Source: a virus
Taxonomy: Duplodnaviria; Heunggongvirae; Uroviricota; Caudoviricetes
Direction: 5' to 3' (one strand)
IMG/VR virus record: IMGVR_UViG_3300001487_000052
Span: 37,503 to 101,502 of that record
DNA: 64,000 nt
Below the pieces are notes generated by a model. It was not told the origin of the DNA. It searched no databases and was given only the letters and a program-made list of their open reading frames with translations. A program made the position numbers and the translations under genes. Shown here one piece after another: positions 607 through 34,608 of the stretch; the first letter of the stretch is position 1, and every line of letters begins with the position of its first letter.

Positions 607-1020
607 ATGATTATAATTAGACAGAAAAACTTTGGTAAGATCTCTTTTCGTAAGGGTCAAAAAGTAGTAGATGGTGTTAAGAGAACCTACGAAAAATCTA
701 AACTTGGGAAATGGGCCGATAAAAACAAGAGTACTATTGGAATCGTAACTGGAATTACTGGAACTGCTCTTGGTACTGCTAACTTAAGTATCGCTCTTAA
801 GAGAAGTCAGAATGAAAAGAAATTCCAGAAAGAACAGATTGATGCTACAAAGAAACTTACTAAGGCCATCGAAAATAGTAATCAGGAGGAGTTAAAGAAA
901 AATAAAAAGCTTGTCAAGAAATCCCAAAAACCCTACACAAGAGACTATTACCTTCCAAAACCAGTTGAGGATTTAAAAGATAAGTCCTTAGAAACAATAA
1001 ATATAAAAAGAAAATCATGA
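607..1020 (+). CDS. MIIxRQKxF-family small basic glycine-zipper protein
   Basis: N-terminus MIIIRQKNFG. Gly-zipper GIVTGITGTALGTA. Lys-rich. Stop overlaps the next start (ATGA at 1017-1020). Confidence 0.55.
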   Translation: MIIIRQKNFGKISFRKGQKVVDGVKRTYEKSKLGKWADKNKSTIGIVTGITGTALGTANLSIALKRSQNEKKFQKEQIDATKKLTKAIENSNQEELKKNKKLVKKSQKPYTRDYYLPKPVEDLKDKSLETINIKRKS

Positions 1021-1688
1021 TAGTATTTAGACAGAAAGATTTTAGTATACTTTCTTCTACGGTTCATGGTGCAGGTATTGGAGGTACTATCGGTGGTTTA
1101 GGTACTGTTTTTCGTCCAAGAAAGGAGGCTGACGGTGAATTTATGCGCAAAGATAAAGACGGGAAACCTTATTTTGACGAAAACGCTAAAAAGACAGCTA
1201 ACAACGCTTACAGACTAAAATTCATGGCTGCAGGTATGTTGGTTGGTGCTGCTCTTGGTGCTCTTTGGGGTAGTATTAAGGAGATCTCGAAAAATGTAAA
1301 TCGAGCTAAGACTGTTGATGCTAGAATCATGGAAAAGGTACTTCGTGGTCTCAAGGCTAGTGGTCTCAAAGAAGGTGTTGATTTTACCAGAGACCCAAAA
1401 CAGGCTAATGCGATGAAGACTAAGGTGTGTATTGTTATTTCTAAGTATTCAGGGGAGCTGAAACTTATGATTAATGTGGTAAAAGATAGCAAACTAGAAC
1501 AGACCGCCACACAGATAGTCAAGAATATACCTAATACCTCTAATGTAGTTACGAGAACTGGAGATAGATACAATGATATTATAGTTTCTACTATTTCAGA
1601 TGCTTCCGCTGATCCCGGACTTATCTGTGGTATTGTAGAAAACTTTGTACATTCTAAGTATCCAGTTTACCTTGTAGAAGTAGGTTAA
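1017..1688 (+). CDS. MIIxRQKxF-family glycine-zipper protein
   Basis: N-terminus MIVFRQKDFS. Gly-zippers GAGIGGTIGGLG and AAGMLVGAALGALWG. Translationally coupled to the upstream gene. Confidence 0.55.
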   Translation: MIVFRQKDFSILSSTVHGAGIGGTIGGLGTVFRPRKEADGEFMRKDKDGKPYFDENAKKTANNAYRLKFMAAGMLVGAALGALWGSIKEISKNVNRAKTVDARIMEKVLRGLKASGLKEGVDFTRDPKQANAMKTKVCIVISKYSGELKLMINVVKDSKLEQTATQIVKNIPNTSNVVTRTGDRYNDIIVSTISDASADPGLICGIVENFVHSKYPVYLVEVG

Positions 1689-1713
1689 TAACAAATAAAT
1701 ACAATAAATAAAT

Positions 1714-4110
1714 ATGGCACAATGGACAGAAACTCTCGAACCCTATATTAAAGTTCAGGAGAGAGTAAAAACTGCAACACTCAATCCTTCTGCTGGTGAG
1801 GATCTGATTATAGGTGTTGCTTTAATATCTGATGCTGGTCCTTCCACTCCAACACTTATCACTAGTCAATCGGAGTTTCTAAGTACCTATGCATCTCAAG
1901 ACGTAACTCAGGCCTACATTGAAGGATTAAATAAACTTTACAAGGGAGATGATAAGACCCTTGCTTCTACTATGTGGGCTAATGCTTATAGACTTGCTGG
2001 TTCTAATTCCATTTTATGTGTTAGAGCAAGTAAGGCTAATAACCTATACTTTACTAAACCACTCAATAACGAAGATGGTACTGATCCTACTACCTATGTT
2101 ATTAGAGATGGTGAAATGTTGAAAAAAGTTCCCTCCTTTAAAATCACTCTTAATGATATTGGAGATGAAGCAAATCTAGATACTGATGGTTGGAGTATTA
2201 ATATTGCAGGAGTAGGTATCTTTGGTAATCGTGTAACTGACGATGGTATTCAATATGATTACTACTGCGGTAATCTTCCTGATCTTATTGATAGTCTTAA
2301 TGACACATCTAAATTCTTCTGCCCAGACTATGAATTCCTTGATAATCAGGGAAATATTATTGAGGTTGATATGAGTGACACTAGTTCCAGGAGTAATGTT
2401 GCAATTTCTAAGATGTTCCTCAAAGAAGTTTATCTTGGAGCAGAAGTTATTGATACCACAGACCCCAGAACTAGTAAGCTTAGCTGGAAAATATTAGACC
2501 ATCCAACTCAGGCTCAGATTGATAAAGCAAGTGCGAGTGGTGAGCCCAAGAACGATTTTAATAAGGTTAGGCAAGTTCCAGTAACTGAGGATAATGCTAA
2601 GGAGGGGCAGGAGATGGTCTTAAGTTTTTATGACGAAGACCATGTTGTTACATATTGTGAATTACAGGATGATAATACTGGTATGCTCTATATCTATACC
2701 ATTAATTATAGCCCTGATCCTAGCCAAGACGAGAAAGATATAATTAACCTCAATGATGCCGCTTATTCTGGATTTGTGGCTGAAAAGAATTATGCTATTA
2801 ATGTTTTTAATTCCTCGACTGAACTTAAAGTTAGAATTCGTAGATTTAATCATAATGCTGTAATTTCTAAAACTCTTAGTAATTCTGAACTGGGAAGCCT
2901 AACTGCAAACGGTCCTTCTCCTTGGACTGTTCTTACTGGCACCCTTGATACTTTTACAGGAGGAGACGAACCAAAAACAGAACTTGATGATAGTGTTCTT
3001 TATCAGGATTTCTATGAGATTGCTGTTTGGGATCCAAGTATCAATGAAGTTGTAAGTTTCTTCAACCTCGGTAATATCCTAGGTCGTGGTGATATGGAGG
3101 TAAGTGAAGTTAATGATCTGCTTAAGATGATTCAACTCTCACTCCCTGATAACCTCGAAGACCTAGATCTTAACTATTTCGGATATACTGAGAATACTGT
3201 AGCTGGTCATCTTGCTCAAATTTTCTGTGACCTTACTATTGACCCAACCGAGTACACAATGCTTAATATTTCCGATTCTGATTTAAAACGTGCTCTTGAT
3301 AATCTCGCTTTGGATGAGGTTTATACTACTGAGGGCTTATGCGACTTAGGAAATACAGAACTTAGCTATCAGAATTATATGGCTTCAATGGCTATTAATG
3401 ATAACTACTTCTATCCCATCTCAACAGTCAACAGCACTAACTATATGACCATCGGAAACTCGGCAACTAAGATTTCTGCTGATTCCTATAAACTGTATAT
3501 GAGTGCTCCTTGGGATATCGATACTGGTACTCTTGGTTGGAAATTCTACTGCAGTCCATCCGTCATCTATTGGGAGACTGTTGCTAAGAATAGAAGAAAT
3601 AATAGAGAGTTTGCTCCAATTCTTGGTCAGGATAATGGAACTGTTCAATATCAGAGACCAACTACCGAATTCAATAAGAGGACTAGACAACTCTTACTCT
3701 CGAGAAAAGTCAACACTGCTATGTGGGATGTTGCTCTTCAAGCTTGGGTAATGAATGATAACTATACGAAACAGACTGAAAATACTATCATGAATGATGA
3801 GGGTAATTCTCGTCTTATGATTCGTATTAGTAAAGCCATGCCCACACTTCTTAGACAGTATATTGGTAAGAGAATTTCCGAGAAACTTTGTAAGAACGTT
3901 GAAGATACTATTGACTATTTCTTCAAAACTAACATTCTTAGCATGGAGTATAATATTGATGGTTATAGAATCACCTGTAAGTACGATGAGATTCTTGCCA
4001 GACAGAACAAGATTAAAGTCCATATTGAAGTTAGATATCAGAGAGCTCTTAAGTATATTGACGTAATCAACGATGCCTATGAAATAGGCCTTCCGTTTGA
4101 GGGAGAATAA
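1714..4110 (+). CDS. putative tail sheath protein (798 aa)
   Basis: N-terminal region LNPSAGEDLIIGVALISDAGPSTPTLITSQSEFLSTYAS matches the characteristic sheath N-terminal pattern (aliG-x-GP...P-litS-x-eF-x-yG), as in T4 gp18-like sheaths. Large size. Followed by a terminator hairpin. Confidence 0.45.
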   Translation: MAQWTETLEPYIKVQERVKTATLNPSAGEDLIIGVALISDAGPSTPTLITSQSEFLSTYASQDVTQAYIEGLNKLYKGDDKTLASTMWANAYRLAGSNSILCVRASKANNLYFTKPLNNEDGTDPTTYVIRDGEMLKKVPSFKITLNDIGDEANLDTDGWSINIAGVGIFGNRVTDDGIQYDYYCGNLPDLIDSLNDTSKFFCPDYEFLDNQGNIIEVDMSDTSSRSNVAISKMFLKEVYLGAEVIDTTDPRTSKLSWKILDHPTQAQIDKASASGEPKNDFNKVRQVPVTEDNAKEGQEMVLSFYDEDHVVTYCELQDDNTGMLYIYTINYSPDPSQDEKDIINLNDAAYSGFVAEKNYAINVFNSSTELKVRIRRFNHNAVISKTLSNSELGSLTANGPSPWTVLTGTLDTFTGGDEPKTELDDSVLYQDFYEIAVWDPSINEVVSFFNLGNILGRGDMEVSEVNDLLKMIQLSLPDNLEDLDLNYFGYTENTVAGHLAQIFCDLTIDPTEYTMLNISDSDLKRALDNLALDEVYTTEGLCDLGNTELSYQNYMASMAINDNYFYPISTVNSTNYMTIGNSATKISADSYKLYMSAPWDIDTGTLGWKFYCSPSVIYWETVAKNRRNNREFAPILGQDNGTVQYQRPTTEFNKRTRQLLLSRKVNTAMWDVALQAWVMNDNYTKQTENTIMNDEGNSRLMIRISKAMPTLLRQYIGKRISEKLCKNVEDTIDYFFKTNILSMEYNIDGYRITCKYDEILARQNKIKVHIEVRYQRALKYIDVINDAYEIGLPFEGE

Positions 4111-4128
4111 TTCCAAAATTAAATCTTG

Positions 4129-4172
4129 AAAGGAGGGGTTATTGATTTCCACTGAATTAGTAGCCCCTCTTT
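4129..4172 (+). terminator. rho-independent terminator-like hairpin after the sheath-like gene
   Basis: AAAGGAGGGG...CCCCTCTTT inverted repeat (one bulged G) followed by TATATTT and an A-run. Confidence 0.45.
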
Positions 4173-4200
4173 ATATTTAAAAAAAATAATAAAATTTTAT

Positions 4201-5250
4201 ATGAGCAGAAAATTAGAATATAGTATCGCAGAAAAACTCATATTTGAAAAAATAGACTATATAAATAAAGAACATAACTTAGACTTAAATTTCGTAGGGG
4301 TTAAAGATAATTGGATTGGTAATGGAAGTAGAATTCTGTTATTTTGTAATATTCATAAAATAACTATAGATGTAAGCTATAGAAATTTTATTAGATTAGA
4401 AAAGTATGGTTGTCCTGAATGTGCAACTAAAAAACATCATGAATCACAAAGACGAACTACCGAAGAGTTCATTAAACTATCAAAAGAGAAATATGGTGAT
4501 AAATTTACATATGAGAAGACAAACTATGTTACTGCTAAGAAAAAAGTTATAATCACCTGTAAAGAACATGGAGATTTTCTTGTAAGTCCAGATTATCATT
4601 TAAGAGAATCCACTATAGCAGGTGGCTGTCCTGAATGTAAACGTACTGTGTACTATGAATCGAATAAAAGGCCAGTAGAAGAATTTATTGAAAAAGCAAG
4701 AGAAGTGCACGGGGATAAATATGACTACTCTAAGGTTAATTATGTTAATAACATTACACCTATAATAATTATATGTCCTATTCATGGAGAGTTTTCTCAA
4801 CTTCCAACAACACATTTACAAGGCTGTGGGTGTCATAGGTGTAGTTGCTCTATAGGAGAAACCATACTATTTGATTATTTCTCTGAGCATGAAATAACTC
4901 CACTTCATCATACGGTGATACATTATGATGATCATACACTTATACCTGATTTCTTGATAGAACTTAATGGTAAACAATATATGATAGAGTATAACGGGAT
5001 ACAACATTACAACCCAAACAATTATTTTAACTCGTTAAATAATAGAAATTCCAATTTGCAAGGATTCGAGTATCAAAAGAACAGAGACGAGTTAAAGATT
5101 AAATATTGTAACGAAAATAATTTAATTTTAATTATTGTCCCTTATATTCTTGATAAAAAAGAAAAAATTTATAATTATATGGACAAAGTATTATATGAGG
5201 GTATTCCACCGAACTCACTTATAGACTTTGATTCATTATACGTTACATAA
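4201..5250 (+). CDS. homing-endonuclease-like protein: two tandem Zn-knuckle repeats plus a C-terminal Vsr/DUF559-like PD-(D/E)xK nuclease motif
   Basis: Two roughly 70-aa tandem repeats, each CPEC-x-EEFI-x-(H/Y)GDK(F/Y)xY-K-NYV...I-C-x-HG(D/E)F...P-x-HL. C-terminal IPDFLIELNGKQYMIEYNGIQHY resembles the vDf...IE-DG..H endonuclease core. Free-standing between a terminator and the next structural gene. Confidence 0.45.
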   Translation: MSRKLEYSIAEKLIFEKIDYINKEHNLDLNFVGVKDNWIGNGSRILLFCNIHKITIDVSYRNFIRLEKYGCPECATKKHHESQRRTTEEFIKLSKEKYGDKFTYEKTNYVTAKKKVIITCKEHGDFLVSPDYHLRESTIAGGCPECKRTVYYESNKRPVEEFIEKAREVHGDKYDYSKVNYVNNITPIIIICPIHGEFSQLPTTHLQGCGCHRCSCSIGETILFDYFSEHEITPLHHTVIHYDDHTLIPDFLIELNGKQYMIEYNGIQHYNPNNYFNSLNNRNSNLQGFEYQKNRDELKIKYCNENNLILIIVPYILDKKEKIYNYMDKVLYEGIPPNSLIDFDSLYVT

Positions 5251-5262
5251 AATAAACTGGAT

Positions 5263-6000: not shown

Positions 6001-6007
6001 GAAGAAT

Positions 6008-6823
6008 ATGATTATAAAGAGAAAACCCGGAATACTAAAAGAGGGTATTAAGAAAATAGTTAAGAGAATTGAAGAGATGCCCTTTGATAATAGGCCTGAA
6101 CCTAAACCTTCTTATATTGAGCTTAAAACTTTTGCTGCACTAGGGGGAGTTAAAGGAGCCACTAAGAGAGCTAGAAGAAGAGTTATGAGAGCTGCTAAGG
6201 ATAGACTTAAACATGGGCTTTTATCTCCTGAAGCTGTTGAAAGAGTAACTAACAGAGAAATCGCGAAAGCTACAAAAAAGGCCAGTACCCCCTTAAAACA
6301 GGATATAAGAGGGGTTATGACAACTGCTAAGGACTCTATAATAAACACCCCTCAGAATCTTAAAACTGCAGTCGTCAAAACTAAAGACATTGCCAAGAAT
6401 ATTTACGAGAATACAGGTGATATAACGGCTAAGACTGCAGGTTGGGCTAGAAAGAATCCAGAGTTAGCACTTTCACAGATTCCTGCCGGTGCTACAAGAG
6501 TTGCTGGTGCTGTAATTGCTCCAGTAAACCCAGCTGCTGCTGCTGCACTACAAGCTGTTCCTGTCACTGCTCCTACCCTAGCTATTTCTAAATTAGTTAG
6601 TGATCCTTATAAAGTTGTTACTTATAAAGGTAAAAAGATGCCAAAATTCAGAAAAAGGGCCATGGCTGGTAAAGAGATGGAGAGAAAGGTTAGTAGTGTT
6701 TTAGGTGGAAAAAGTATTAAGGGTGCTGTTGAAAATATTAAGACGGGAATTACTTCTTTACTTCCTGAACCAATATCACCCCAAGCTATTCCCTCTTATA
6801 GACTAGCAAGAGTGACAATGTAA
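6008..6823 (+). CDS. basic Ala/Lys-rich protein, distant member of the MII family
   Basis: N-terminus MIIKRKPG. Very Lys/Arg-rich. Ala-rich hydrophobic tract AGATRVAGAVIAPVNPAAAAALQAV. Confidence 0.5.
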   Translation: MIIKRKPGILKEGIKKIVKRIEEMPFDNRPEPKPSYIELKTFAALGGVKGATKRARRRVMRAAKDRLKHGLLSPEAVERVTNREIAKATKKASTPLKQDIRGVMTTAKDSIINTPQNLKTAVVKTKDIAKNIYENTGDITAKTAGWARKNPELALSQIPAGATRVAGAVIAPVNPAAAAALQAVPVTAPTLAISKLVSDPYKVVTYKGKKMPKFRKRAMAGKEMERKVSSVLGGKSIKGAVENIKTGITSLLPEPISPQAIPSYRLARVTM

Positions 6824-6835: not shown

Positions 6836-8047
6836 ATGATTTTATTCAGACAAAAAAACTTCACAATTCAAGAGGGTCATTTTACAGGCACTAAAGATGA
6901 AGATAGACTCCCTGGTGCTGTAGAGGTTATTGGAAAGTCTGCTATTGGAGGTGCTATAATTGGTGCTATAGTAGGAAAATTCAATAAGAAATCTACAGTT
7001 AAGGATGGAGCTGTTTCTGGTGCTAAGTATGGTGCTCTCACAGGAATTGCATTGAAGCTACTTATAAATTATCTTCATAAACCGATGTCCAGAGTTAAAT
7101 ATCAAGAAGTGGACAAGGGAATAAGAAGAGAATATGGAATTTATAAAGCAGGTGGTATTATTATTGGGGATAAACTTGATAAAAGAGCCTCAATGGAAGA
7201 GAGATTTGCTTTTAATGATAGAAATGTGTGTGCCTATAAGATCTGCTTTGCTGTTCAAGATAATCAGGTCACTATGTACACCCTCGGCCTCAGTGATCAG
7301 GAATTAGAAAAACTTAATAACCACCTTGATCATTATTGTAAGGAATATTATGGAATGGAATATACTTCTATCCCTATAAATCAAAAAACTAACTCCTATT
7401 CTGTTAGTATAGTCTTTACAAATTATCAGGTTATTTCTAATTTTATGGTTGAACTTAGCGAACTTCTAGAAACTAAGATTAACCTGCTAGACAATAATGC
7501 TCTAGTAAAAGGAAGATTAGAGGAGAGCCAGAAGTCTTTTAGTGTTACGCCCCTCAATAAGTATGATGTTATGAAAATCCTCAGTAAAAATGGTATAAAA
7601 AGTACTATAAATGCTATTTTTACAAGGAGAATAGGAAAATCAATGTCGCAATTTGTTCTTAATTCAATCCGAGACGTTTGTACTACTATAACAGCTCAGG
7701 ATATGACTAAAGAAGGCATACCAGTTCCTAGACAATTTTATAACAATCCTTATCTTGAAGACACACTAAAGCGACTCCATTATATCGAGGGGTTCAATTA
7801 TACGATATCAGAGAAGGATCAGAAAAATAATATGTCACTTGTCAATGGAATCTTTATCGTCACACTAGAAAAAGGAAGTGATGAAATGAAAGAAGTTGAT
7901 AAAGTATACATAAAGGGGAAGATGAAAAGAACCGATACAGGAAAAGTTATTGTTTATTCTTATTCCTTTAAAGATAAAAACGAATTTGAAATGATCTTAA
8001 AGAAACTGATGTCAACTAAGATTACGTTCAACATATTTGAAGGATGA
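6836..8047 (+). CDS. MIIxRQKxF-family protein with a DRLPG + glycine-zipper module (403 aa)
   Basis: N-terminus MILFRQKNFT. KDEDRLPGAVEVIGKSAIGGAIIGAIVG parallels NKDRLPGDDNALVSGLAKAASGGLGSALG in the 1010-aa protein at 8849. Confidence 0.55.
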   Translation: MILFRQKNFTIQEGHFTGTKDEDRLPGAVEVIGKSAIGGAIIGAIVGKFNKKSTVKDGAVSGAKYGALTGIALKLLINYLHKPMSRVKYQEVDKGIRREYGIYKAGGIIIGDKLDKRASMEERFAFNDRNVCAYKICFAVQDNQVTMYTLGLSDQELEKLNNHLDHYCKEYYGMEYTSIPINQKTNSYSVSIVFTNYQVISNFMVELSELLETKINLLDNNALVKGRLEESQKSFSVTPLNKYDVMKILSKNGIKSTINAIFTRRIGKSMSQFVLNSIRDVCTTITAQDMTKEGIPVPRQFYNNPYLEDTLKRLHYIEGFNYTISEKDQKNNMSLVNGIFIVTLEKGSDEMKEVDKVYIKGKMKRTDTGKVIVYSYSFKDKNEFEMILKKLMSTKITFNIFEG

Positions 8048-8409
8048 TGATTATACTTAGAGAAAAAACCTATTCAAATATTTTTATCGGACGTGTTACA
8101 GGTGAGCTAGATAGAAGTGGATATGAAGATTATGATATTTCTTCTACAGTTCCCGAAGATAGTATAAGTATTAATACCGACCTTTCCCATCTTAAAGTTT
8201 ATATTCCAGTAGACCTTGAGTATAGTCAGTATGGTATTGATGATTTTATACGTTCCCTAGCTCCTTTTATCAGAACTAACACACTCCTTGATAGAAATAT
8301 ATTTGTGATGTCTCTCTCCGGAAGATTAACAGAGACACAATATATAAAGCTGATCAAACATATTATAGATCAAGAAGAAACCTGTATAATTGTAGACGAA
8401 GATGAATAA
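8044..8409 (+). CDS. MIIxREK-family small protein
   Basis: N-terminus MMIILREKTYS. ATGA overlap with the upstream gene. Confidence 0.5.
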   Translation: MMIILREKTYSNIFIGRVTGELDRSGYEDYDISSTVPEDSISINTDLSHLKVYIPVDLEYSQYGIDDFIRSLAPFIRTNTLLDRNIFVMSLSGRLTETQYIKLIKHIIDQEETCIIVDEDE

Positions 8410-8839
8410 TGAGAATATGGCCTCCAGAAACTTAGAAAAGGCCAACAAATTTTATGCTATTGGACTTAAGAATATAAAAATGCAAATGGCCATGGTGGGT
8501 ACTAATTTTGTTGTCTTAAGGCCGAAAGATAATAGTAAATGGAAGAATGTATTTGGAGGCTCATATTCTTCAGAGTCAACGTTAGAAAATGATTATGAAC
8601 AAACTACAACAACGCTCATAATCAATCAAAATGAAATGAGAGATGTATGGAATAGAAACCGTGATATCCTAGAGTCTTATTCTGATGATGGTTCTTTACA
8701 GGTGGGAGATGAATTACAGTACACCAGAGATAAAAGAACTTACAGATTTAAGATATCTATGAAACAGGCATATTCAGAAGCAGGAACGGGATTATACGCA
8801 TATACACTCTCAAGCATAATAGAGACATTGGAAGAATAA
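8402..8839 (+). CDS. hypothetical protein (145 aa)
   Basis: ORF overlapping the upstream stop. Co-directional. Confidence 0.45.
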   Translation: MNNENMASRNLEKANKFYAIGLKNIKMQMAMVGTNFVVLRPKDNSKWKNVFGGSYSSESTLENDYEQTTTTLIINQNEMRDVWNRNRDILESYSDDGSLQVGDELQYTRDKRTYRFKISMKQAYSEAGTGLYAYTLSSIIETLEE

Positions 8840-8848
8840 AGAGCAGTT

Positions 8849-11800
8849 ATGGATACAGATATTAGAAAAACAAATAAGATTCCCGGTTGTGAGCAATTAA
8901 CTAGACCTGAAGAAATAGCTGCACTTTCTAAATATCTTGGGGAAATTAAAAGAATCCAAGAAGAACATACGAAACTGGTGGATGAGGGTCTAGAAGTACC
9001 GGGAAGAACAACAGGAAGAATACCCGAAGTATCTGAACTAGGGGATGCTGTTCTTAGCTTAGAGGACACTAGAGAAAAAACCCTAGAGAATACAAGGCTA
9101 GGAATTACAGGAGATAAAAGAACTGTAGAACTAGAGACAGAAAAGGAAAGACTAACAGACACTAAGGAAATAGGACTCTCACAGAAAAAAGAAAGACTAG
9201 AAGACTCACGAGAAACCAGACTAGAAACTAAGTCTGAGGTTCTAAAGGATCAGAGACAGATAACGCTCGGAGATAAGAAGGAAGAACTTAGAGATAATAG
9301 AAATAATAACCTCTCTGAAAAAACCGAGCGTATTAGTATCGATCCTAAAATAGACAGACTAGAAACTAAGTCTGAAGTTCTAGAGGATCAAAGAAAACAG
9401 TTAGGATTAGAGACAAAAGTAGTGGAGGGAGAAAAAAATGAACAACCTACACTCTCTAAGTACACTGATTCCTTAGATGTACAACAGGAAAATACTCTTG
9501 GGAATTATAAAGAAAATCTACAAGACACTAAAGAAGAGCCATCCTTAACAGACTATGTGATAGGACTGGTAAATGAGGATAGAGTTTCCGGATTGTCTGA
9601 TTCTGTTACACCTCTAAATAATTCGAGGGAAGTAGAAAGCCTAGGGGATCATAAAGAGACTATAGATCCTGAGGAGATAGAAAACCTAGGAAACCACAAA
9701 GAAACTATAGAGCCTAGAGTAGTAGAAAATCTTAGGGGACAAATAAAAGACTTGGATGCTTCTCCTGATCCAAAAAGCCTAGAGGATTATAAAGAGACTA
9801 TAGAACCCAGCAAAGACCTAGAAAACTTTGGAACAACTAAGGACAACACAACCATAAATCCTGAAGATGTAAACCTAGAAACAAATAAATCTGATTGGTT
9901 AAGGGGTGTAATTCAAGCAGCCAATGCAAAAAGGGATGAAGATGGATTATATAATACAGCAATACATCTTTTCTCAGAGGAAGGAACGGAGTGGAGTGAG
10001 AGAGTAGCTGCCCTTATGTCTACTTATCTCAGTGGTTCTAGAATAAGTCCGGAAAGAGCAGAAGAATTTGAAGAATTATTAGCAAGTTCATTTGTATATC
10101 CAGGTTCTACTCCACAACAATTAAGACCAGAGAATCAGACAACAAGAGATGGTGGTAATTACGTAGATCCTGATGAAATTAAAAATAATCCATTCGTTCT
10201 TCGTCCAAACTTATATAGACGTGAAGATAATAACAATGGAGATGGACCAACTAGAGACAATAAAACCTGGGATTATGACGAGAACGGAAATTATGTTTTA
10301 ACAACAGGAGAAAATGAAGATGATGCAAGAAATAATCCCCCTTCATTTGGACTGTATCGAGATAATGGCCTAATACGAACTCCCCAGTATGATCTTAATA
10401 TTGGTCCTGCAGATGCCTCTGCTACAGAAAAGTGGAAAAACATTGGTATAAAAGCTCTAAACAAAGGAGGGGTTAGTAGTTACCTTAGATATGCGGCAGA
10501 ACAAGTTGTAGGAATTGGAGATTGGACTAGAGGATCTTTGAGAACACAACTAATAAACGAGGCCCTAGCACTTCTCGTAAGGAGTAGAGACCAGTTAGAG
10601 AAGGTAGCAAAAATTAACAAAGATAGACTCCCCGGTGACGATAATGCGTTAGTATCTGGTCTTGCGAAAGCAGCTAGTGGTGGTCTCGGAAGTGCTCTTG
10701 GTCAATATGGTTATACCGGCTATGATCCTAAGGCTGGTGTACAGAGTTTAATAAAGACTGGAGTTAATATAGGTAAAAACATAGCTGGTGATGTTATTGA
10801 TTATTTCTCTGAGAAAAAAAGTATTCCTGACTATGGATCACCTGTGCCATCAGAACCATTCAATAGACCAAAAGTAGTTGGAAAAGAGGGAAATAAAATA
10901 CTAACTGAAACTACTAAATATGGCTATGGAACAAATACTAGGGAGTTTAGAAGTAATGAGCTTGGTTCAGGATTTTTAATCACACTTAAGGATCTATGTG
11001 GAAAAGATCAGGGTGCTATCAAGACCGGATCATTAGAAGAGCTACAAAAGATATTAACGGAAAGTGAATTAATTACAACCGCAAGTAAGATTAATAAAAG
11101 AATTCAACGAACTCTGGACTCAAATATGTACTGGGAAGTTGTATTAAAACCTTGGGCATACAATTTGGGAGATAAATACTCTAATGGTGGTTATTCATTT
11201 TTACCAAGTATAAAAGAAATTAACACCATAAACCGAGTTGAGCATGGAGTTGATACAACTTATAATAAATGGATTCCTATCTCAAATTTCGAATTACAAA
11301 AATCTAAATTAACAACTAAGTCTCTAGGATTATTTGATGGAGAGATAAACTATCCGGTGACTTCAGAGTATACGAACGAATTTAGGATGACTGTAGTAGA
11401 TGATCAGTGGAAATCATGGAAACATTACTTTCAGAAGTGTTCAGATGTTTCAGTTTATAACTCAGAACCCCATCCAATTGATTATTACAAGGAGACAAAT
11501 CCAATTCCAACCGCAATCGATAAGAGTACTCTTTGTGCTGCTTTCTATAAAAATATAGCATTTAGTATTGAGATCTATATAATGACTCCTCAAATGTCTA
11601 CCATAAGAAAATTCCACATCTTAGCAATATTAAGAGATTTTTCAGAGGAATATACAGGGGAGTCAGACTCTGGCGGTTCAGACTTAAATGTTAGCTTTTC
11701 TATTGTTGGGGAGGTAGATGATAATGATATATACCTAGATGATACATTTATGGATAGGTATAGTGCTAAAAAGGAAATAGACACAATGTTAAATACCCAA

Positions 11801-14227: not shown

Positions 14228-14728
14228 ATGGCAACAGTAGCTGAATTAGTCCGTGGTGGTGACGGATACATGAAATTTATTGACTACACAAGCACGTATA
14301 AGGATGACAATAAAGAATTCCTGCGTGGTGATATGTGGCAATTCGATTTCCTTAACTGGCCTAGAATCGTATATAGTCCTGGTAATTCTATTTTCCATGC
14401 TCGTCTAAATAGTGTCCAGGTAGGTATCGATGGTGCTGTTAATGGTTTCGAGAAGAGAATGAGAGGAAACTTTGTAATTAGACAACAAACCGGTCAAAAT
14501 ACATCGGGTCAGCTCACTCTTAGTTTTATAGACAAGGAAGATCAGGCTATTTCGTACTTTGTTGATGATTGGAAACAGAAAATTGCCGACAGAGATACAA
14601 AATATAGCTTTAGAAAGGATGATGTTGTTGCAGATTGTCAGCTCGTTCTTACCAATTCCAGCCGTCTCGCAGTTAGAACTTTGAAATTCTATAACTGTGT
14701 GATTATGGATGCTCCGCTCGATAAATAA
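14228..14728 (+). CDS. hypothetical 166-aa protein (size compatible with a tail tube/Hcp-like protein; unverified)
   Basis: Size and position directly after a large structural gene. No motif evidence. Confidence 0.3.
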   Translation: MATVAELVRGGDGYMKFIDYTSTYKDDNKEFLRGDMWQFDFLNWPRIVYSPGNSIFHARLNSVQVGIDGAVNGFEKRMRGNFVIRQQTGQNTSGQLTLSFIDKEDQAISYFVDDWKQKIADRDTKYSFRKDDVVADCQLVLTNSSRLAVRTLKFYNCVIMDAPLDK

Positions 14729-15090: not shown

Positions 15091-15522
15091 ATGATTATAT
15101 ACAGACAAAAAGAATTTGCCTCGACTAAAGAAAGCAGAGAGAAAGTTAAAGAAGCCAATAAGAAAGACAAGACTAGAAAGAACTTGGAAAGAGCTCAACT
15201 AGGAACTGCTGTTGGTGGTGCTGCGACTATAATTGAAGGAAACAGGTTGAAGAAAGCAGCGGAGAAAATTGAGAAGACTATTAAAGGGAAACCTGTGGAT
15301 ATAAAGAAGGTAGAGAAAATGCAAAAACTCGGAAAAACTGCTAAGACTCTACACAAAACCGCACCTTATCTGATTGCTGCTTCTGCTGGTCTCGAGGCTG
15401 TGAAAATTGCTCGTGATATAAAGAAATCAAAGAAAAAGAAGGAGATTGTATTAGATTCTAAGGCCCCTAAGAAAATGAAGGGAAAGGAATCTAAAAGTGA
15501 TCTCCTGAAACTAGACAAATAA
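15091..15522 (+). CDS. MIIxRQKxF-family basic protein
   Basis: N-terminus MIIYRQKEFAS. Gly-zipper LGTAVGGAATIIEG. Lys-rich. Confidence 0.55.
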   Translation: MIIYRQKEFASTKESREKVKEANKKDKTRKNLERAQLGTAVGGAATIIEGNRLKKAAEKIEKTIKGKPVDIKKVEKMQKLGKTAKTLHKTAPYLIAASAGLEAVKIARDIKKSKKKKEIVLDSKAPKKMKGKESKSDLLKLDK

Positions 15523-15578: not shown

Positions 15579-15621
15579 GCATACAGGGGGAGGGGTGATA
15601 AGTTAAATTTTCCCTGTATGC
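15579..15621 (+). promoter_or_regulatory. perfect 10-bp-stem leader hairpin (GCATACAGGG/CCCTGTATGC) immediately upstream of the 15636 start
   Basis: Inverted repeat read directly. It overlaps the track-proposed ATG at 15618, which argues for the downstream start. Confidence 0.45.
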
Positions 15622-15635: not shown

Positions 15636-16571
15636 ATGATTATATTGAGGATGTTTTCTAAGAAGGGGGATAAAGAAACTGATAAAGAGAAAGTAGTCAA
15701 AGGTAGGGATATTGCGGCAGGTATTGGAATAGGTACTGCAGCTGGAATAGCAGGAGTAGCCGCTAACTCTGCATTTGGGAAAAAACTAAGGAATGCAAAA
15801 TCTATAGACCCCGAAGAAGAGAAAAAACTACGTGAAGAATTAATAAAAAAAGCGAAGAAACAAGGAACCAGGACTATAAATACTAATGCTGAAAATTCAA
15901 TGGCAGTAGGAACCTCAGAAGGGAAAGTAATAAGAAAAGCCTTAGCTAAATTAGCTAAAAAGGATAGAAAAAAGTATGAAGCCATAAAAGAAGCTACGAA
16001 ATATCCTGGAATGGATGGTGTCCTCGAACATATAGGAAAAGATCAAATAATTCTTGGAAAAGGAAGACTCTCTGAAGCGGATGTTCTCTCACATGAGTTG
16101 GGGCATACTCAATTTCTAGAAAAGGGAAGATCAAAGGATGTCATAGCAAAGACAGCTCATAGGCTTAACGCAGTTAGTAAGATGGGGACTATGGGATTAA
16201 AAAGATCTGCTGTATATGGAGCTCATGGATATGCAAATGGTTTAAAGGCCGCTAAAATGGAAAGTGAGGGCAAAAAGGAAAGCTTTGGTCATAGAATTAA
16301 GGCAGCTGGTTTGCCTGCTCTAGTTGCTGCTCCAATATTAATAGCTGAAGGTGCTGCTACTGGTAAAGGATTGAAACTCTTGAAACAGGCTGGAGTAAGT
16401 AAGAGGGCTATGAAAACTGCAAGAAAAACATTAGGAAACGCTTATGGTACCTATGCCTCAATTGCTGCAGGAAATGTTGCAGCTGGAGAAGGAGGAAGAC
16501 TAGTTGGTAAAGCAGTAGGAAAGAAACGTTACAAAAAAGAAAAAGAGAAGGAAAAAGAGAATAAGAAATAA
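15636..16571 (+). CDS. MII-family protein with an HExxH zinc-metallopeptidase-like motif and a C-terminal glycine-zipper/basic tail
   Basis: Start moved from 15618 to the in-frame ATG at 15636, giving MIILRMFSKKGDK. HELGH motif (DVLSHELGHTQF). Gly-zippers AAGIGIGTAAGIAGVAANSAFG and AEGAATGKG. Confidence 0.5.
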   Translation: MIILRMFSKKGDKETDKEKVVKGRDIAAGIGIGTAAGIAGVAANSAFGKKLRNAKSIDPEEEKKLREELIKKAKKQGTRTINTNAENSMAVGTSEGKVIRKALAKLAKKDRKKYEAIKEATKYPGMDGVLEHIGKDQIILGKGRLSEADVLSHELGHTQFLEKGRSKDVIAKTAHRLNAVSKMGTMGLKRSAVYGAHGYANGLKAAKMESEGKKESFGHRIKAAGLPALVAAPILIAEGAATGKGLKLLKQAGVSKRAMKTARKTLGNAYGTYASIAAGNVAAGEGGRLVGKAVGKKRYKKEKEKEKENKK

Positions 16572-18110: not shown

Positions 18111-18944
18111 ATGATTATATTAAGACAGAAACAATATTCACCTGGTTTCTCTGGCATAAAACAAGTACTTAAAAAGAATATTGATAGTGCCAGAATGAAA
18201 CTAGCTGAAAAATTAGATAAATCCATAGAGAAAGATTTAATTGAAAAGAATAGATTTGAAAATTTAGGTACGGAACTCAGTGATAGACTTAGGGAAAGAA
18301 CTATCACTACGGAAGCAGCTGAATCAGATATAGCCAAACGAATAAATTCCGGAGAAAGGATATCAAGAACTCATGCTAAGAATCCTTACATAGAAAACGG
18401 CGAACTAATTCTTCCAAATCCAATATCATCAGGGAAATTATATCATGAGATAGGTCACATAGAAAATGCTAACGGTAATAATGGCAAAATACCACAGTTT
18501 ATTAGTAAACATGGACAAACTCCAGAAAATCTTCGAGAAGTTAATGTTATGGATCTGATTAGTTCTGACTATAGATATTCAGATAGGGCTCAGCGTGAAG
18601 AATTGTTAAGAAATAACCCAGAAACATTAAAGGTGTTAAACGAATCTCTTGGAAATAAAAAACCGGTTGAATCTATAAAAAGATTTATTAAAGGAAAAAC
18701 TTTAGTAAGGGATGAGAGGAATGCTTCAAGATGGGGATTAAAGAAAACAAGAGAGAAAATAAACGACCCTGAGGTATTATCTCTTGAAGAACAGAGACAA
18801 AAAGCTGCGAACGAAACATATAATCGATCTATTTTAGCTTCCAGTAAAATACCTCTAAGGAATAGTATACAGATACCCAGTAAGAGAGGTAATTTTAAAT
18901 TTGATAAACTTAAAGAAGAGTATGATAAAAGAAACCCCAATTAA
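18111..18944 (+). CDS. MII-family protein with an HExxH metallopeptidase-like motif
   Basis: N-terminus MIILRQKQYS. LYHEIGHIEN motif. Confidence 0.55.
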   Translation: MIILRQKQYSPGFSGIKQVLKKNIDSARMKLAEKLDKSIEKDLIEKNRFENLGTELSDRLRERTITTEAAESDIAKRINSGERISRTHAKNPYIENGELILPNPISSGKLYHEIGHIENANGNNGKIPQFISKHGQTPENLREVNVMDLISSDYRYSDRAQREELLRNNPETLKVLNESLGNKKPVESIKRFIKGKTLVRDERNASRWGLKKTREKINDPEVLSLEEQRQKAANETYNRSILASSKIPLRNSIQIPSKRGNFKFDKLKEEYDKRNPN

Positions 18945-22400: not shown

Positions 22401-22600
22401 ATAATAGGTCTGAAATAGAATCTCCTACTAATCAAGTTTTAGCTGCTGGATTTCAAGCAACCATAACTAATGATCAAAATGGTTATCAGATTTTATCTGC
22501 ACAATTAGCTTCAATTGAGAGTAAATTAAGTGCTATCATGGTTACTTCTGGTTCTAAACAAAAACCAAGTGCCTCTTCAATCACAACTAAAGATATATAA
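19463..22600 (+). CDS. coiled-coil tail protein with a C-terminal M23 (LytM-type) peptidase domain; tape-measure-like or virion-associated lysin
   Basis: Q/A-rich N-terminal region. M23 signatures FHYGIDLA, YYHARL and PHIHVEVHD around nt 21800-22110. Confidence 0.65.
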   Translation: MAESTDKKTRKIAEKRVEPGKEFESYQEAQNQLLAIQAEQQQNLALQANDAMNVQQQNQTLAQAAEVMAMDNLNPATQGILAGYGLNQPRVIKQSNTQRQGPNNITINNTTINNASGPVQGREISIRPQEAGQTKFKAWLTNIFARQDAQWQKQNQEYARRESSLTRNSNKMMRKLEGLGKEIGSVMDPRKIANTQRNQIKTLLTIIGLPLLAKYLPKVFEKINGIEKSVTGWFKEFKENAGDKIKDLFGIKGDKGILESLLSSLHNQNEDGVLDIILKKINEWLTEHIDLANKISPINVSLLNPGESLKSFADWLSIVLGGTKQANRFVNNQKRLDLIGGLSDQNKKEEDFQVSALSTGEEDKEIFDGKGHRILMNRKETNRGSAEIDSNTSSEQLYSEFSSWASEKGLKPTKSNLNEYLRQRDDVTYTGEAIILTKSVHDSAKKGYLVFSDEDLNFWKDGISGENWYGSLAASLDIVANIKKKSVTITKENPSAVNGTHKITSSREKEKSILPNRILLLLNLLLKAAKRYGPQPVFNSFLTMFFDIGKISQLEEDEVLVPQKFKLIRERMTENDRQRYWPRGRKGYSNFYKKIVMQNVTGKALKLKEKDFNGNENKDSWEIYRISAQGIANILEMTTKSSEETYTEEAQRWLIDYLVRNKKVSNQTVTYDIDEDYQKTMDNISAAQAEEDQTRLNLALTHETKQTEGYSQEDANSYVDSGKSKIKQDIPRVSYVERSSDFRSPYSVTDEEKSKSPRLVIGKSISGVTKAFGGTGALTSNFMEWRDSRFHYGIDLANSAGDEVKYPGYGTIMQSGRTNKSGTYIDIKDERGYTTRYYHARLYGGLQPGSKVTPGQPIGITERKGENGNSTYPHIHVEVHDPDWSKQAGKEYQHKHYVNPLVYWSRHKAEKQQVLQPNTDNSPDESVSIQQNTGVIPASGGPDFDISPQEALSPKINSRVKVELPHKFIDINKKELGSTNNRSEIESPTNQVLAAGFQATITNDQNGYQILSAQLASIESKLSAIMVTSGSKQKPSASSITTKDI

Positions 22601-28667: not shown

Positions 28668-28675
28668 AATAGGTC

Positions 28676-29518: not shown

Positions 29519-29704
29519 ATGGAAAAAGTATTTATTGTTGAGGAAACAGGAGAAAAGATAGTTGGAACGATTGAGGGTATTTATAAGGTTCCAGAAGGGA
29601 GAATAGAGGAATCCCTGAGAGAGTTCCTCAAAAAAAGAAAACAAAAACAGTTTTCTAATAAAGAAAAGAAGAAATATTTAATAAAACGAAAATCAGGAAA
29701 ATGA
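29519..29704 (+). CDS. small EKVFIV-family protein, paralog B
   Basis: MEKVFIVEETGEKIVGTIEGIYKVPEGRIEES. ATGA overlap with 29701. Confidence 0.35.
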   Translation: MEKVFIVEETGEKIVGTIEGIYKVPEGRIEESLREFLKKRKQKQFSNKEKKKYLIKRKSGK

Positions 29705-30252
29705 TGATAATATTTAGAGAAAAATTATTTAGAAGGGATGATGTTTCTGATAATGATTTAAAGCAACTACTTGATGATCCAGACCTAGTTAAAGAATACG
29801 GTCCCTCCGAGTTGATTATAATAGCTTCAAAAAAATATAATGAGGATCTGAAAAAACTAGGAATAAAAGGTAGTGCTGATAGAAACGTACTAGAAAAATT
29901 AAAAAAGGATGTAAGAAGCGGATACCTATTTAATGATGGTCCTGGAAAGGGAGATACACACCCGTTAGGAGATTTTTCTAAAAAAGATAAATCTTATGTA
30001 TTTTCTAAAAAGATATCAGAACAGCATAGATTTAACTATCGAATCTTTCCACCAAAATTAGAACTGGATGATAAAACAGGAAAACTCAGATACGGAAGAA
30101 AAGTTATATTAGTTTCTTGTTATGGCCATGAAACAGAAGAAGGGGATTATTTAAATGATAAAAATCTCCGCTCTAGGAAGAATAGAATGAGAGGAAATGC
30201 GCCTTATCGTAAATCTGAATCTATAATGAAGAAAAAGAAAAAAAATAGATGA
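29701..30252 (+). CDS. MIIxREK-family protein
   Basis: N-terminus MMIIFREKLFRR. ATGA overlap with 30249. Confidence 0.5.
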   Translation: MMIIFREKLFRRDDVSDNDLKQLLDDPDLVKEYGPSELIIIASKKYNEDLKKLGIKGSADRNVLEKLKKDVRSGYLFNDGPGKGDTHPLGDFSKKDKSYVFSKKISEQHRFNYRIFPPKLELDDKTGKLRYGRKVILVSCYGHETEEGDYLNDKNLRSRKNRMRGNAPYRKSESIMKKKKKNR

Positions 30253-30662: not shown

Positions 30663-30664
30663 AT

Positions 30665-30739
30665 GGTGTGTATAGCTCAATTGGTTAGAGCTCTAGATTG
30701 TGGTTCTAGGGGTTGTCAGTTCGATTCTGACTACACACC
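30665..30739 (+). tRNA. tRNA-His (anticodon GUG) with genomically encoded G-1
   Basis: Manual fold. G-1 at 30665. Acceptor GTGTGTA/TACACAC. D-stem GCTC/GAGC. Anticodon stem CTAGA/TCTAG with loop TTGTGGT. T-arm GTCAG-TTCGATT-CTGAC. Discriminator C at 30739. CCA not fully encoded. Confidence 0.8.
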
Positions 30740-30974
30740 CAAAATAAAGATGAAGATAGGAGACTGTTTTTATCTTTTTTGTTTGCTGTGGAATGGTTTA
30801 AGGGGGTGGAGTGGTTCCCTTCGAGACGAGCGTAGCGAAGTCGAGATCCAACTCGAACTAATAAATCAAAGCTAAGTATTTTAAGCGGAACGCTTTAATA
30901 ATATAGCTTTAAATCTCTAGTTCGAATAATTACCAAGAGAGCCGCCTTCCCGGTGCCCGCCAGAATTCTATTAC

Positions 30975-31143
30975 GTTCGTTCATTCCTCACTATGTTCGT
31001 CATTACCTCACTACATAACGAATTCAACCCGGCTCTCTTTATCTTACGGGTTATCCTCGTTAAAAATTTCTTCTCGCTTCCATCCGTTGCTCGTAGCGAA
31101 ATTTTTTGGAAATCTTAACGTTTCGTTCGTTCCTCACTACACT
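30975..31143 (+). repeat. iteron-like direct repeats (GTTCGTTCATTCCTCACTA x3, degenerate) in a 530-bp noncoding region
   Basis: R1 30975-30993, R2 30996-31014 (adjacent), R3 31125-31143. A shared 9-mer CGTAGCGAA also occurs at 30832-30840 and 31094-31102. Confidence 0.45.
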
Positions 31144-31316
31144 AATTTCCAACACTCGTCCGGGAACCCTAAGATAGAAAGAAATATCCTACATAGATGG
31201 ATTAATAAAAATTGGAAATTGGAAAATATTCCTCCATATAAACCCAACAACGTTTTTAGGAATTAAAATTGGAAAAACACAGTCTAGAAAATCTTAAATC
31301 CTAATAGATGAATGAT

Positions 31317-31348
31317 GAAAGGGTACCAGTCCAGAGGTGTACCCTTTC
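31317..31348 (+). promoter_or_regulatory. perfect 10-bp-stem hairpin (GAAAGGGTAC/GTACCCTTTC, 12-nt loop) about 60 nt upstream of the helicase-like gene
   Basis: Read directly. Followed by a palindrome GTATAC-TTGGAATA-GTATAC at 31371-31390. Confidence 0.4.
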
Positions 31349-31409
31349 CAGATGATGATTATAACGTAACGTATACTTGGAATAGTATACCCTTAAAACA
31401 AATTAAATT

Positions 31410-33503: not shown

Positions 33504-33556
33504 AAACGGGAGCGACCACTTTTTAAGGAGTTTTTGATATGAAACCCTTATATATG

Positions 33557-33594
33557 TAGAGAAGTTTGATTATCAGCTTCTCTACTGTTTTGTT
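33557..33594 (+). terminator. terminator-like hairpin after the helicase-like gene
   Basis: TAGAGAAG...CTTCTCTA stem followed by CTGTTTTGTT. Confidence 0.4.
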
Positions 33595-33615
33595 AATAAA
33601 AACCTAATATTTGAG

Positions 33616-34029
33616 ATGAAAAAGAGTAAAAAATATTTAATTAATCCAGATCTTAAGATAGTAAAAAAATATCATGATAAGACGGGGTTGAAAATTTATA
33701 TATTTGAACAACCAATGACAATTAGTGGTGTCTCTTTTACTAACCTTTTACTTGAGGTATATGAAGACAAGGACTATTTTGGTTTTATAGAATCTGGGTG
33801 GCCTGTTGATAGAGACAAGGTTTATGAATATATTAGATGTGTAGAACTTTTTATATTCAGAAAAAATTGGCCACATTGGAATAAATTACAAAAAAGAAGA
33901 TTACTTAGGATCATACGTGAATTTCCTTTACACCCAGGAACAACATATGGGGATTTTCTATATCAAGATGGAAGGGTTAATTGGGATAAGGTAGAGGAAT
34001 ATGAGACTAATCATAAAAAACATGAATAA
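33616..34029 (+). CDS. hypothetical protein, tandem paralog A (PLH-x-G...GDF...DGRV-W-K-YE family)
   Basis: RRLLRIIREFPLHPGTTYGDFLYQDGRVNWDKVEEYE parallels the next ORF. Confidence 0.45.
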   Translation: MKKSKKYLINPDLKIVKKYHDKTGLKIYIFEQPMTISGVSFTNLLLEVYEDKDYFGFIESGWPVDRDKVYEYIRCVELFIFRKNWPHWNKLQKRRLLRIIREFPLHPGTTYGDFLYQDGRVNWDKVEEYETNHKKHE

Positions 34030-34423
34030 AGGAAAATATTTACGCTCTAGTTTATCAGATAGAGAAATAGTAAGTGTGTTTAAGAATAAATCAGGAAATC
34101 GAGTCGTACTATATAAAGTATTCAAACCTGTGTCTTACTATTATGTTGTCGTTAGTAATTCATACAGGACAATATGCGATCTTATTTCAGGATTGCCAGA
34201 CGAAGAAGAGGCCGAGTATTATTTGAGGGACATAGAAAAGTATACAAAAAGAATAAAAGATAAAACAACGAGGAGATATTTTCTAAGACTTGTACGATCT
34301 CTTCCACTACATCAAGGAAAGTTGTTCGGGGACTTTATGTTTTCAGATGGCAGAGTAGATTGGGAGAAAATTAAAAAATATGAACAACAGTTTCCAGGAT
34401 GGGAGACTAGAATAAAACCATAA
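34001..34423 (+). CDS. hypothetical protein, tandem paralog B
   Basis: RRYFLRLVRSLPLHQGKLFGDFMFSDGRVDWEKIKKYE. Confidence 0.45.
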   Translation: MRLIIKNMNKGKYLRSSLSDREIVSVFKNKSGNRVVLYKVFKPVSYYYVVVSNSYRTICDLISGLPDEEEAEYYLRDIEKYTKRIKDKTTRRYFLRLVRSLPLHQGKLFGDFMFSDGRVDWEKIKKYEQQFPGWETRIKP

Positions 34424-34428
34424 TAAGT

Positions 34429-34608
34429 ATGATAATTTTACGAGAAACGAATTATTCTAGAAAATCAGAAATTGAACTAGATGAGGAGATAAAGGATGGA
34501 GCGGAAACCTTCATCAAAGAAATACTAAAGTATATATTAATGAGTAGTAGTCCTTTAATTAGTGAGTGGACTAGAAATCATTGGGCCATAGGGCTTCGAA
34601 TAAGATGA
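34429..34608 (+). CDS. unannotated 59-aa ORF with an MII-family N-terminus (MIILRETNYS)
   Basis: Not in the supplied ORF track. ATG at 34429. Its stop TGA at 34606-34608 overlaps the ATG at 34605 of the next gene (ATGA coupling). Confidence 0.35.
   Translation: MIILRETNYSRKSEIELDEEIKDGAETFIKEILKYILMSSSPLISEWTRNHWAIGLRIR

Follow-up and report, generated by a model that had tools for sequence, protein, structure and literature searches.

A shared N-terminal decapeptide in a clade of huge rumen and gut Caudoviricetes, a likely capsid-targeting propeptide ending in a prohead-protease site

The stretch of viral DNA considered here (hereafter, the window) comprises 64,000 nucleotides, positions 37,503 to 101,502 of the IMG/VR record IMGVR_UViG_3300001487_000052 (Caudoviricetes), and originates from sheep rumen. 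It has a G+C content of ~35% and contains a block of phage structural genes, nearly all on the plus strand, in which at least 10 proteins that are otherwise dissimilar begin with almost the same nine to ten residues, here called the tag. The strict pattern MI[IVL]x[RK][QE][KT]x[FY] has 8 matches in the six-frame translation of the window, all of them on the plus strand and at starts of open reading frames (ORFs), each 2-23 codons past an in-frame stop; omission of the Met from the pattern returns only the same 8 sites. Three further genes (85, 6008 and 15636; genes are named by their start positions, Table 1) carry weaker variants. No tag was found in the window between 35 and 64 kb. All coordinates and N-termini given in the initial annotation, which had put the peptide forward as a candidate virion-targeting or cargo-loading tag, were reproduced on translation.

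The strict pattern had no match in shuffled windows (n = 200; 100 mononucleotide and 100 triplet shuffles). When a position-specific scoring matrix was used, the 8 sites scored 21-31 bits and the next best site, which is not an ORF start, 13.8 bits, although this matrix was seeded with those sites and is not an independent measure. The last part of the tag (hereafter, the core), searched as [KR]x[FY][STGA], occurs within the first 12 residues in 9 of 45 genes, against 1.16 expected. After removal of the first 12 residues BLASTP detected no significant pair among the members (best E = 0.07), and thus their remainders are as dissimilar as had been claimed. Single-linkage clustering of the full-length, untrimmed proteins together with relatives joined 607 with 1017 and 6836 with 8044; judging from sequence, these may be very distant paralogues, or split or fused forms of one another. 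Pfam and PHROGs searches with all tagged proteins returned no significant family.

In the family of 607, the exact product of which is also present in sheep-rumen assemblies, orthologues on related contigs (numbered with the prefix L) L001-L004 and L036 keep the tag, with 68% identity over residues 1-10 versus 22% over residues 11-40. Gene 1017, whose start overlaps the preceding stop codon (ATGA), represents a family in which identity is 68% over the tag versus 41% over the 30 residues that follow. Of the tagged families, that of 6836 (…FTIPEGHYTGPKD…) is conserved most widely, with tagged orthologues in every subclade examined. Orthologues of 15091 are found at 21807 in L001 and at 4287 in L269 (MIILREKEFAS). 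In the 29704 family MIIFREKLFRRDEF is almost invariant across 16 homologues, and one orthologue starts with GTG; neither Pfam nor phmmer nor a PDB profile search bore out the impression by eye that the C-terminal half of this protein resembles a YoeB-like toxin. The start of 15636 is an internal ATG of the ORF opening at 15618, and no orthologue of this gene was seen in the closest relative covering the spot. HExxH motifs in the 15636 and 18111 proteins suggest zinc metalloproteases; neither protein gave a family or structure match. The ORF at 34429 has no counterpart in L343, the one relative covering that region, and may not be a real gene. As for the other two weak members, orthologues of 85 in other subclades begin directly with MIIKRKLFT or MYILRRKLYT, and those of 6008 with MPIKFRPKK or MPEFRPKK. 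A module, …E-E-R-L-Y-S-T-G-N-D-E-L-D-x-L-L-E-R-A-F-C-x-G-Y-E-Y, recurs in paralogous small proteins encoded by gene 85, by a tandem array at 481-2789 of L190 and at 9234-9701 of L269; this N-terminal module combines the core (R-L-Y-S) with a conserved helix. Sec, Tat and lipoprotein signal peptides were rejected as explanations of the tag: in most members the sequence that follows it is hydrophilic (FTIQEGHFTGTKDE, FASTKESREK, FRRDDVSD), and no member has a Cys lipobox or an RR pair. A type IV pilin-like leader and a kinase site were ruled out on sequence features and codon data.

For the sheath protein (gene 1714), IMG/VR contains 66 relatives, many on contigs of 200-401 kb, some of which come from human samples of the Human Microbiome Project. 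Among deposited phage genomes, neither the window nor the sheath nor the 6836 protein had a match by megablast or tblastn. A scan of related genomes showed that the tag recurs across the clade: relatives with a sheath only 45-55% identical have the same kind of N-terminus on several non-homologous orthologue groups. The clade consensus is M-I-K-F-R-Q-K-E-F-S, with a small residue (S/T/G/A) at position 10 in ~77% of distinct tags, and among the looser forms are MINFRKKKY, MARYRLKRKTF, MIIKRKLFT and MMIVKRFSQ. In IMG/VR, more than 119 stretches matched a DNA pattern for M-I-x-F-R-Q-K-x-F. Among the matches listed, most stretches have several tagged ORFs and belong to the clade, while a minority are single matches in short ORFs of unrelated contigs; the strict-pattern matches listed on large clade contigs with a mapped structural module are all in or near that module. 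In a 375-kb relative from human gut, 14 of the 38 ORFs (at least 60 codons) of the 43-kb head-tail module have the tag or the core.

Comparison of 152 distinct tag DNAs from the clade with the genome background revealed near-background codon usage, with CAA/CAG ratios of 67/33 versus 60/40 for Gln and TTT/TTC ratios of 65/35 versus 60/40 for Phe9. Ser10 is encoded by both the TCN and the AGY families, and synonymous sites of the tag have only the mild A/T bias that is usual at gene starts. In three of four orthologue families, conservation is higher over residues 1-10 than over the 30 that follow. Taken together, the near-background codons, the use of both Ser families, the GTG start in one orthologue and the conservation in three of four families place the constraint on the peptide rather than on an RNA element. 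Selection acts on the tag as protein, not as DNA, which upholds the protein-level conservation claimed initially.

Nothing in the window names the system, as had been stated; the evidence that does so comes from related contigs that extend past its left end, at 5-12 kb upstream of the window start. The head genes were read from L188 (sheath 90% identical), L190, L193 and other members of the clade. Their order is HNH endonuclease, 428-residue protein, 257-residue protein, a very acidic 737-residue repeat protein and a 486-residue protein (70-77% identical clade-wide, in the position of the capsid gene), followed by small tagged genes running into the window. Searches of profile libraries and PDB sequences returned nothing for the upstream head proteins. 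The AlphaFold model of the 428-residue protein, built with 47 homologues, has a confident N-terminal domain (residues 1-196), a disordered linker (198-277; predicted local distance difference test, pLDDT, below 50) and a helical C-terminal domain; H54, H91, S140 and D167 are invariant in the 47 homologues. By this model the protein is a prohead protease of the gp21/assemblin fold, and its gene adjoins those of the scaffold candidate and the capsid protein. The module therefore has the layout known from T4: protease, core or scaffold, capsid protein. In L193 and L244 the protease gene is split into two ORFs, with an HNH gene directly upstream in L193. In many clade members the protease begins with M-x-x-K-[V/A]-K-L-F-S. 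T4 gp21 is activated when it cuts nine residues off its own N-terminus (T4 review), and the start of the protease recalls this, a parallel that we do not take as evidence.

The other head proteins are also rich in sites resembling the core. The 257-residue protein, a head-core candidate, begins with M-x-R-R-K-L-F-S, has RRKLFS again a few residues on and contains further conserved sites. It also has a conserved CxxC…CxxC zinc-ribbon-like element, unusual in a core or scaffold protein of a phage. The 737-residue protein is made of repeats of ~95 residues, each with KTYS, KFFS and RLFSE sites; as a candidate scaffold, it would yield numerous small fragments on cleavage. For the capsid protein, the predicted model (mean pLDDT 58.5) has the HK97 fold shared with encapsulins. 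In 20 clade members its EYAKMFS (residues 33-39) and LLQKTFSG (53-60) are invariant. Sequence ahead of QKTFSG varies and has indels, and that behind it is almost invariant, the pattern expected of a cleaved N-terminal leader, by analogy with T4 gp23, which loses 65 residues (T4 review).

When K-x-[FY]-[ST] was counted per protein and compared with 500 shuffles, the three head-core proteins were enriched 9- to 40-fold (Table 1), whereas sheath, tube, baseplate-like, hub-like and HNH proteins had no such site. The tag thus ends in the same motif that is repeated in the head-core proteins. In the protease all sites fall within the disordered linker, where K-x-F-S is invariant amid hypervariable, indel-rich sequence. 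Site logos for internal sites, E-[K/R]-x-[F/Y]-S-[E/D], and for tags, I-x-[F/L]-R-Q-K-x-[F/Y]-[S/T/G/A], have K-x-F-S in common, the tags being extended by an N-terminal half that is hydrophobic and basic. By its sequence the tag is therefore of two parts: M-I-x-[F/L]-R-Q, specific to N-termini, and K-x-[F/Y]-[S/T/G/A], reused inside head-core proteins. A cut after Glu in the manner of T4 (after F-S-E) was considered and rejected, because only ~46% of internal sites and 15% of tags have an acidic residue at +2, and neither the invariant capsid-protein sites nor two of the four invariant protease-linker sites have one.

Table 1. Tagged genes, untagged controls and other features of the window, with the upstream head genes as found in L188 (sites, K-x-[FY]-[ST] or the variant given; coordinates are those of the window unless L188 is named)
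Feature	Location	Strand	Length (residues)	N-terminus or tag (tag position)	Remarks
Weak member	85..588	+	167	MKIRIKNYS	Core K-N-Y-S; second core site QKEFT at residues 31-35
Tagged gene	607..1020	+	137	MIIIRQKNF-G (607-636)	Remainder Lys-rich with Gly-rich hydrophobic segment
Tagged gene	1017..1688	+	223	MIVFRQKDF-S (1017-1046)	Tag followed by glycine-zipper-like segment (weak Gly-zipper Pfam matches)
Tail sheath	1714..4110	+		Untagged	Negative control; phrog_23 (weak); 0 K-x-F/Y-S/T sites
HNH homing endonuclease	4201-5250				phrog_559, E = 2e-47
Weak or degenerate member	6008..6823	+	271	MIIKRKPGI	No aromatic residue at position 9
Tagged gene	6836..8047	+	403	MILFRQKNF-T (6836-6865)	
Tagged gene	8047..8409	+	120	MIILREKTY-S (8047-8076)	Second ATG of ORF opening at 8044, (M)MIILREKTY
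Tail tube	14228..14728	+		Untagged	Negative control; phrog_45; 0 K-x-F/Y-S/T sites
Tagged gene	15091..15522	+	143	MIIYRQKEF-A (15091-15120)	Very Lys-rich; directly after tail-tube gene
Weaker tagged gene	15636..16571	+	311 if start is 15636	MIILRMFSK	Core R-x-F-S kept; contains HELGH
Tagged gene	18111..18944	+	277	MIILRQKQY-S (18111-18140)	Contains HEIGH; in variable hotspot
M23 peptidase-domain protein	19463-22600		1045		PF01551, E = 8e-16
Tiny-ORF array copy	29519-29704				MEKVFIVEETGEKIV
Tagged gene	29704..30252	+	182	MIIFREKLF-R (29704-29733)	ORF opens at 29701, (M)MIIFREKLF
tRNA-His (GTG)	30666-30740				
Overlapping neighbours	33616-34029; 34001-34423		137; 140		Mutual paralogues
59-residue ORF	34429..34608	+	59	MIILRETNY (34429-34458)	
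Giant ORFs	40200-45509; 47909-52624; 52627-57213		1769; 1571; 1528		First two paralogous (BLAST clustering)
Composition shift	~58000-64000				G+C up to 0.38-0.41; GC skew reversed; coding strand minus at 60835-63400
Predicted protease	L188 2638-3924		428		Three genes upstream of capsid gene; 5 sites, 0.53 expected, count reached in 0/500 shuffles
Head-core candidate	L188 3925-4698		257		7 sites, 0.35 expected, count reached in 0/500 shuffles
Acidic repeat protein	L188 4724-6937		737		214 Asp+Glu, isoelectric point (pI) 4.05; 14 sites, 0.33 expected, count reached in 0/500 shuffles

The set of tagged genes changes between relatives. A variable hotspot lies between the tube and baseplate-like genes and the gene for a 1045-residue M23-peptidase protein; in the window it holds 18111, in L269, the closest relative covering the spot (tube 97% identical), three different tagged ORFs, and in the more distant L272, L274 and L284 no tagged ORF. 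Judging from these comparisons, tagged genes behave as swappable accessory cargo. Such turnover parallels that of the internal-protein loci of T4. The clade itself appears, by description, to resemble the Jug (jumbo gut) phages, whose genomes of 360-402 kb are low in G+C and have HNH endonucleases or group I introns inserted in genes (PMC12880540): the sizes of the contigs, the fact that many relatives come from human gut and the HNH insertions that split the protease gene are in keeping with Jug phages and ruminant relatives of theirs. The Jug-phage paper (PMC12880540) mentions no N-terminal motif, none of the literature searched contains the exact tag strings, and the tag is apparently unreported.

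On balance of sequence evidence and analogy, we think it moderately likely that the tag is a capsid-targeting propeptide of the T4 kind, ending in a prohead-protease site and carried by swappable head cargo. Under this scenario, the basic leader would dock the protein on the very acidic scaffold or core (pI ~4) during prohead formation. The gp21/assemblin-type protease would then degrade the core at its many K-x-F-S sites, remove the leader of ~58 residues from the capsid protein and clip a leader of ~9 residues off each cargo protein. The scissile bond would probably lie between the aromatic residue and the small one (Ser), by analogy with the Ala-Ser bond of assemblin and with Ser at P1' in SPN3US gp245. 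Mature cargo would stay in the head and probably be ejected with the DNA, and would include the Gly-zipper or membrane-like proteins, the two HExxH proteins and other small enzymes.

Several observations weigh against this scenario. The head genes on which it draws lie in L188 and other clade members, not in the window, and the model of the capsid protein is of low confidence. The tagged proteins of 122 and 178 residues sit between the capsid and sheath genes and may belong to the neck or connector instead of being cargo inside the head. Internal sites are flanked by acidic residues (E-K-x-F-S-E), while the upstream part of the tags is basic, and the two classes may have different partners. 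At position 10, some 17-20% of tags carry a residue that is bulky or charged, as in the 29704 family (MIIFREKLF-R), and hence not every tag may be cleaved. Genome-wide confinement of tags to the structural module cannot be claimed from the matches listed. Packaging and cleavage of the tagged proteins are inferred, as are docking, the exact scissile bond and ejection. Accordingly, the virion-targeting tag proposed in the initial annotation is narrowed to one of the head-targeting type, favoured by the protease, by K-x-F/Y-S in head-core proteins and by cargo turnover, with packaging and cleavage put forward as its predicted consequences.

The main rival is a peptide that serves docking only: K-x-F-S, and the full tag, would be a short linear motif that fits a pocket on the portal or on the capsid protein's inner face, so that it loads cargo and renders the scaffold multivalent and is not a protease site at all, much like the cargo-loading peptide of encapsulins or the C-terminal tail of a scaffold protein. 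The encapsulin-like HK97 fold of the capsid protein, the 14 copies in the acidic protein, which would provide multivalency, and the tags with no small residue at position 10 all agree with it. What makes it unlikely, in our assessment, is the invariance of the motif in the protease linker and where leader and body of the capsid protein meet, classic positions of self-processing and maturation that docking would hardly explain, and the fact that all known gp21/assemblin systems use a single recurrent site motif throughout that set of proteins. A leader that instead sends proteins to the tail lumen, baseplate or neck, as a general virion or tail tag similar to those of extracellular contractile injection systems (eCIS), would account for the several tagged genes among tube, baseplate and tape-measure-like genes and for small tagged genes in the usual positions of neck genes. 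We find this quite improbable, as no recognisable tail protein has the tag or the core and the other homes of the motif are all head-core proteins beside the prohead protease; moreover, genes for head cargo of T4 are also scattered outside its head cluster.

Explanations that involve no targeting fare worse. The tag could have been kept as the ancestral N-terminus of a single old paralogue family that diverged fast, or gene starts could be spread by a recombination cassette, and both the joining of 607 with 1017 and of 6836 with 8044 in full-length clustering and the Gly-zipper-like segments of several members could be read in this way. However, similarity is not significant once the tag is removed, the tag outlasts the sequence next to it when divergence is deep, neither flanking DNA nor synonymous sites are conserved, and the motif in protease, scaffold and capsid protein would be left unexplained, which together render this reading very improbable; the analogy with paralogue families of jumbo phages drawn in the initial annotation falls with it. 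The same annotation had named as its own possible refutation a nucleotide-level translation-initiation element; such an element could be a downstream-box-like RNA signal in a host that lacks Shine-Dalgarno sites. Preference for AGA (85% versus 59% in the background) and for TTT at position 4 (82% versus 60%), together with the lack of obvious Shine-Dalgarno sequences upstream, would be in line with such an element. Yet Ser10 is drawn from TCN and AGY, Gln and Phe9 codons are at background, the tag is missing from capsid, sheath and tube, the structural genes with the highest expression, and the core recurs in frame deep within proteins. This reading is hardly credible, and the codon data have already effectively refuted it.

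A free-standing HNH homing endonuclease gene separates the sheath gene of the window from the next conserved one, and relatives have a different endonuclease in its place or none; an Rfam scan revealed no group I introns in the window. The tRNA-His gene, within the structural region, is the sole Rfam or ARAGORN match. Directly upstream of the 29704-family gene, L343 has a tandem array of tiny paralogous ORFs (8721-10004; ~51-115 residues, MKKTFTIxxTGEVITA…), of which the window keeps one copy. Two overlapping neighbours upstream of 34429 are paralogues of each other. The M23 peptidase domain is internal to its protein, which has 953-1782 residues in relatives and is probably a tape-measure protein or a tail-associated lysin; a related-locus search with the 1045-residue protein found no relatives. 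For the three giant ORFs there was no family match, PHROGs being uninformative on the large proteins of the 35-64 kb region, and they are presumably fibres or host-recognition proteins. The shift in composition and coding strand close to the right end of the window probably marks the end of the late structural block.

If the tag is indeed a cleaved head-targeting leader, the packaged, and probably injected, protein set of abundant uncultured huge phages of gut and rumen could be read from sequence. The head protein sets of phiKZ-like and T4-like phages, by comparison, took years of proteomics. It would also follow that a gp21/assemblin-type protease has a new site specificity, basic-x-aromatic/Ser (the slash marking the cut), and that the mature capsid protein begins with SGYAETPLLSTQYF… (after QKTF) or RNE… (after AKMFS); peptides such as MIKFRQKEFSEYD and EEKLFSEE would be candidate substrates of the protease. 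Site specificity and capsid N-terminus can both be checked in existing gut metaproteomes. The tag would mark fast-evolving candidate effectors of host takeover or anti-defence, and is a possible compact signal by which capsids of Bacteroidota phages could be loaded with foreign proteins. A bolder extension, which we regard as conceivable but somewhat doubtful, is that the tag is a universal address label for the injected proteome of Jug-like huge Bacteroidota phages, the swapping tagged genes being a co-injected arsenal of host-takeover and anti-defence effectors. In that event any protein whose N-terminus reads M-I-x-Φ-R-Q-K-x-F/Y would enter the head and reach the host along with the DNA, the large arsenal (HExxH, toxin-like and Gly-zipper proteins) could be listed from metagenomes alone and the label would be usable for packaging foreign proteins.

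The initial annotation had compared the tag with three known types of system, and with two of these the likeness is limited. The N-terminal signals of eCIS and Photorhabdus virulence cassettes (PVC) likewise stand on diverse effector cargo of a contractile machine, but they consist of ~50 disordered, poorly conserved residues and load the tube lumen of a particle devoid of a capsid. This analogy fails because the phage forms a capsid, with capsid protein, prohead protease and scaffold present, and because the motif tracks head-core proteins, sheath, tube and baseplate proteins being free of it. The phages phiKZ and SPN3US (proteases gp175 and gp245, site [S/A/G]-x-E) are huge myoviruses in which a related protease processes many head proteins. 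SPN3US gp245 prefers serine at P1', and many copies of its motif lie inside propeptides (PMC10052503). However, those propeptides are mostly of 111-254 residues and share no decapeptide, the site motif is another one and the inner-body or ejection cargo comprises paralogue families, whereas the proteins described here have a decapeptide leader and no detectable paralogy. Cargo-loading peptides of encapsulins are also short and transplantable and send diverse cargo into the lumen of an HK97-fold shell, but they are usually C-terminal, remain uncleaved, work with no protease and have another consensus. The assemblin-scaffold system of herpesvirus UL26, with Ala-Ser release and maturation sites, belongs to a eukaryotic virus, has no N-terminal cargo tags and has Ala rather than an aromatic residue at P1.

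The best counterpart is the capsid-targeting sequence (CTS) of T4 with its protease gp21, the third analogy drawn initially and the one favoured by the prohead protease, the recurring K-x-F/Y-S and the swappable tagged genes. In T4, and by prediction here, a leader of ~10 residues precedes unrelated, non-essential head cargo, the genes of which are scattered and variable; a gp21/assemblin-fold protease is encoded in the order protease, core or scaffold, capsid protein; and one short site motif recurs in scaffold, protease, capsid-protein leader and cargo leaders. The CTS of T4 is MKTYQEFIAE, with Φ-x-E sites. The tag consensus MIKFRQKEFS is unrelated to it, and the site motif is basic-x-aromatic-Ser, so that the two are analogues, not homologues. 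The protease, with its linker and helical C-terminal domain, has a layout nearer to that of UL26. In addition, the T4 CTS is conserved in only two proteins (T4 review), whereas here at least 10 window proteins bear the tag, as do others upstream, and it is conserved across the clade. The kind of system thus appears to be an already known, T4-like one, and what would be new, judged from sequence, is the tag itself, the scale on which it is used and its clade-wide use.

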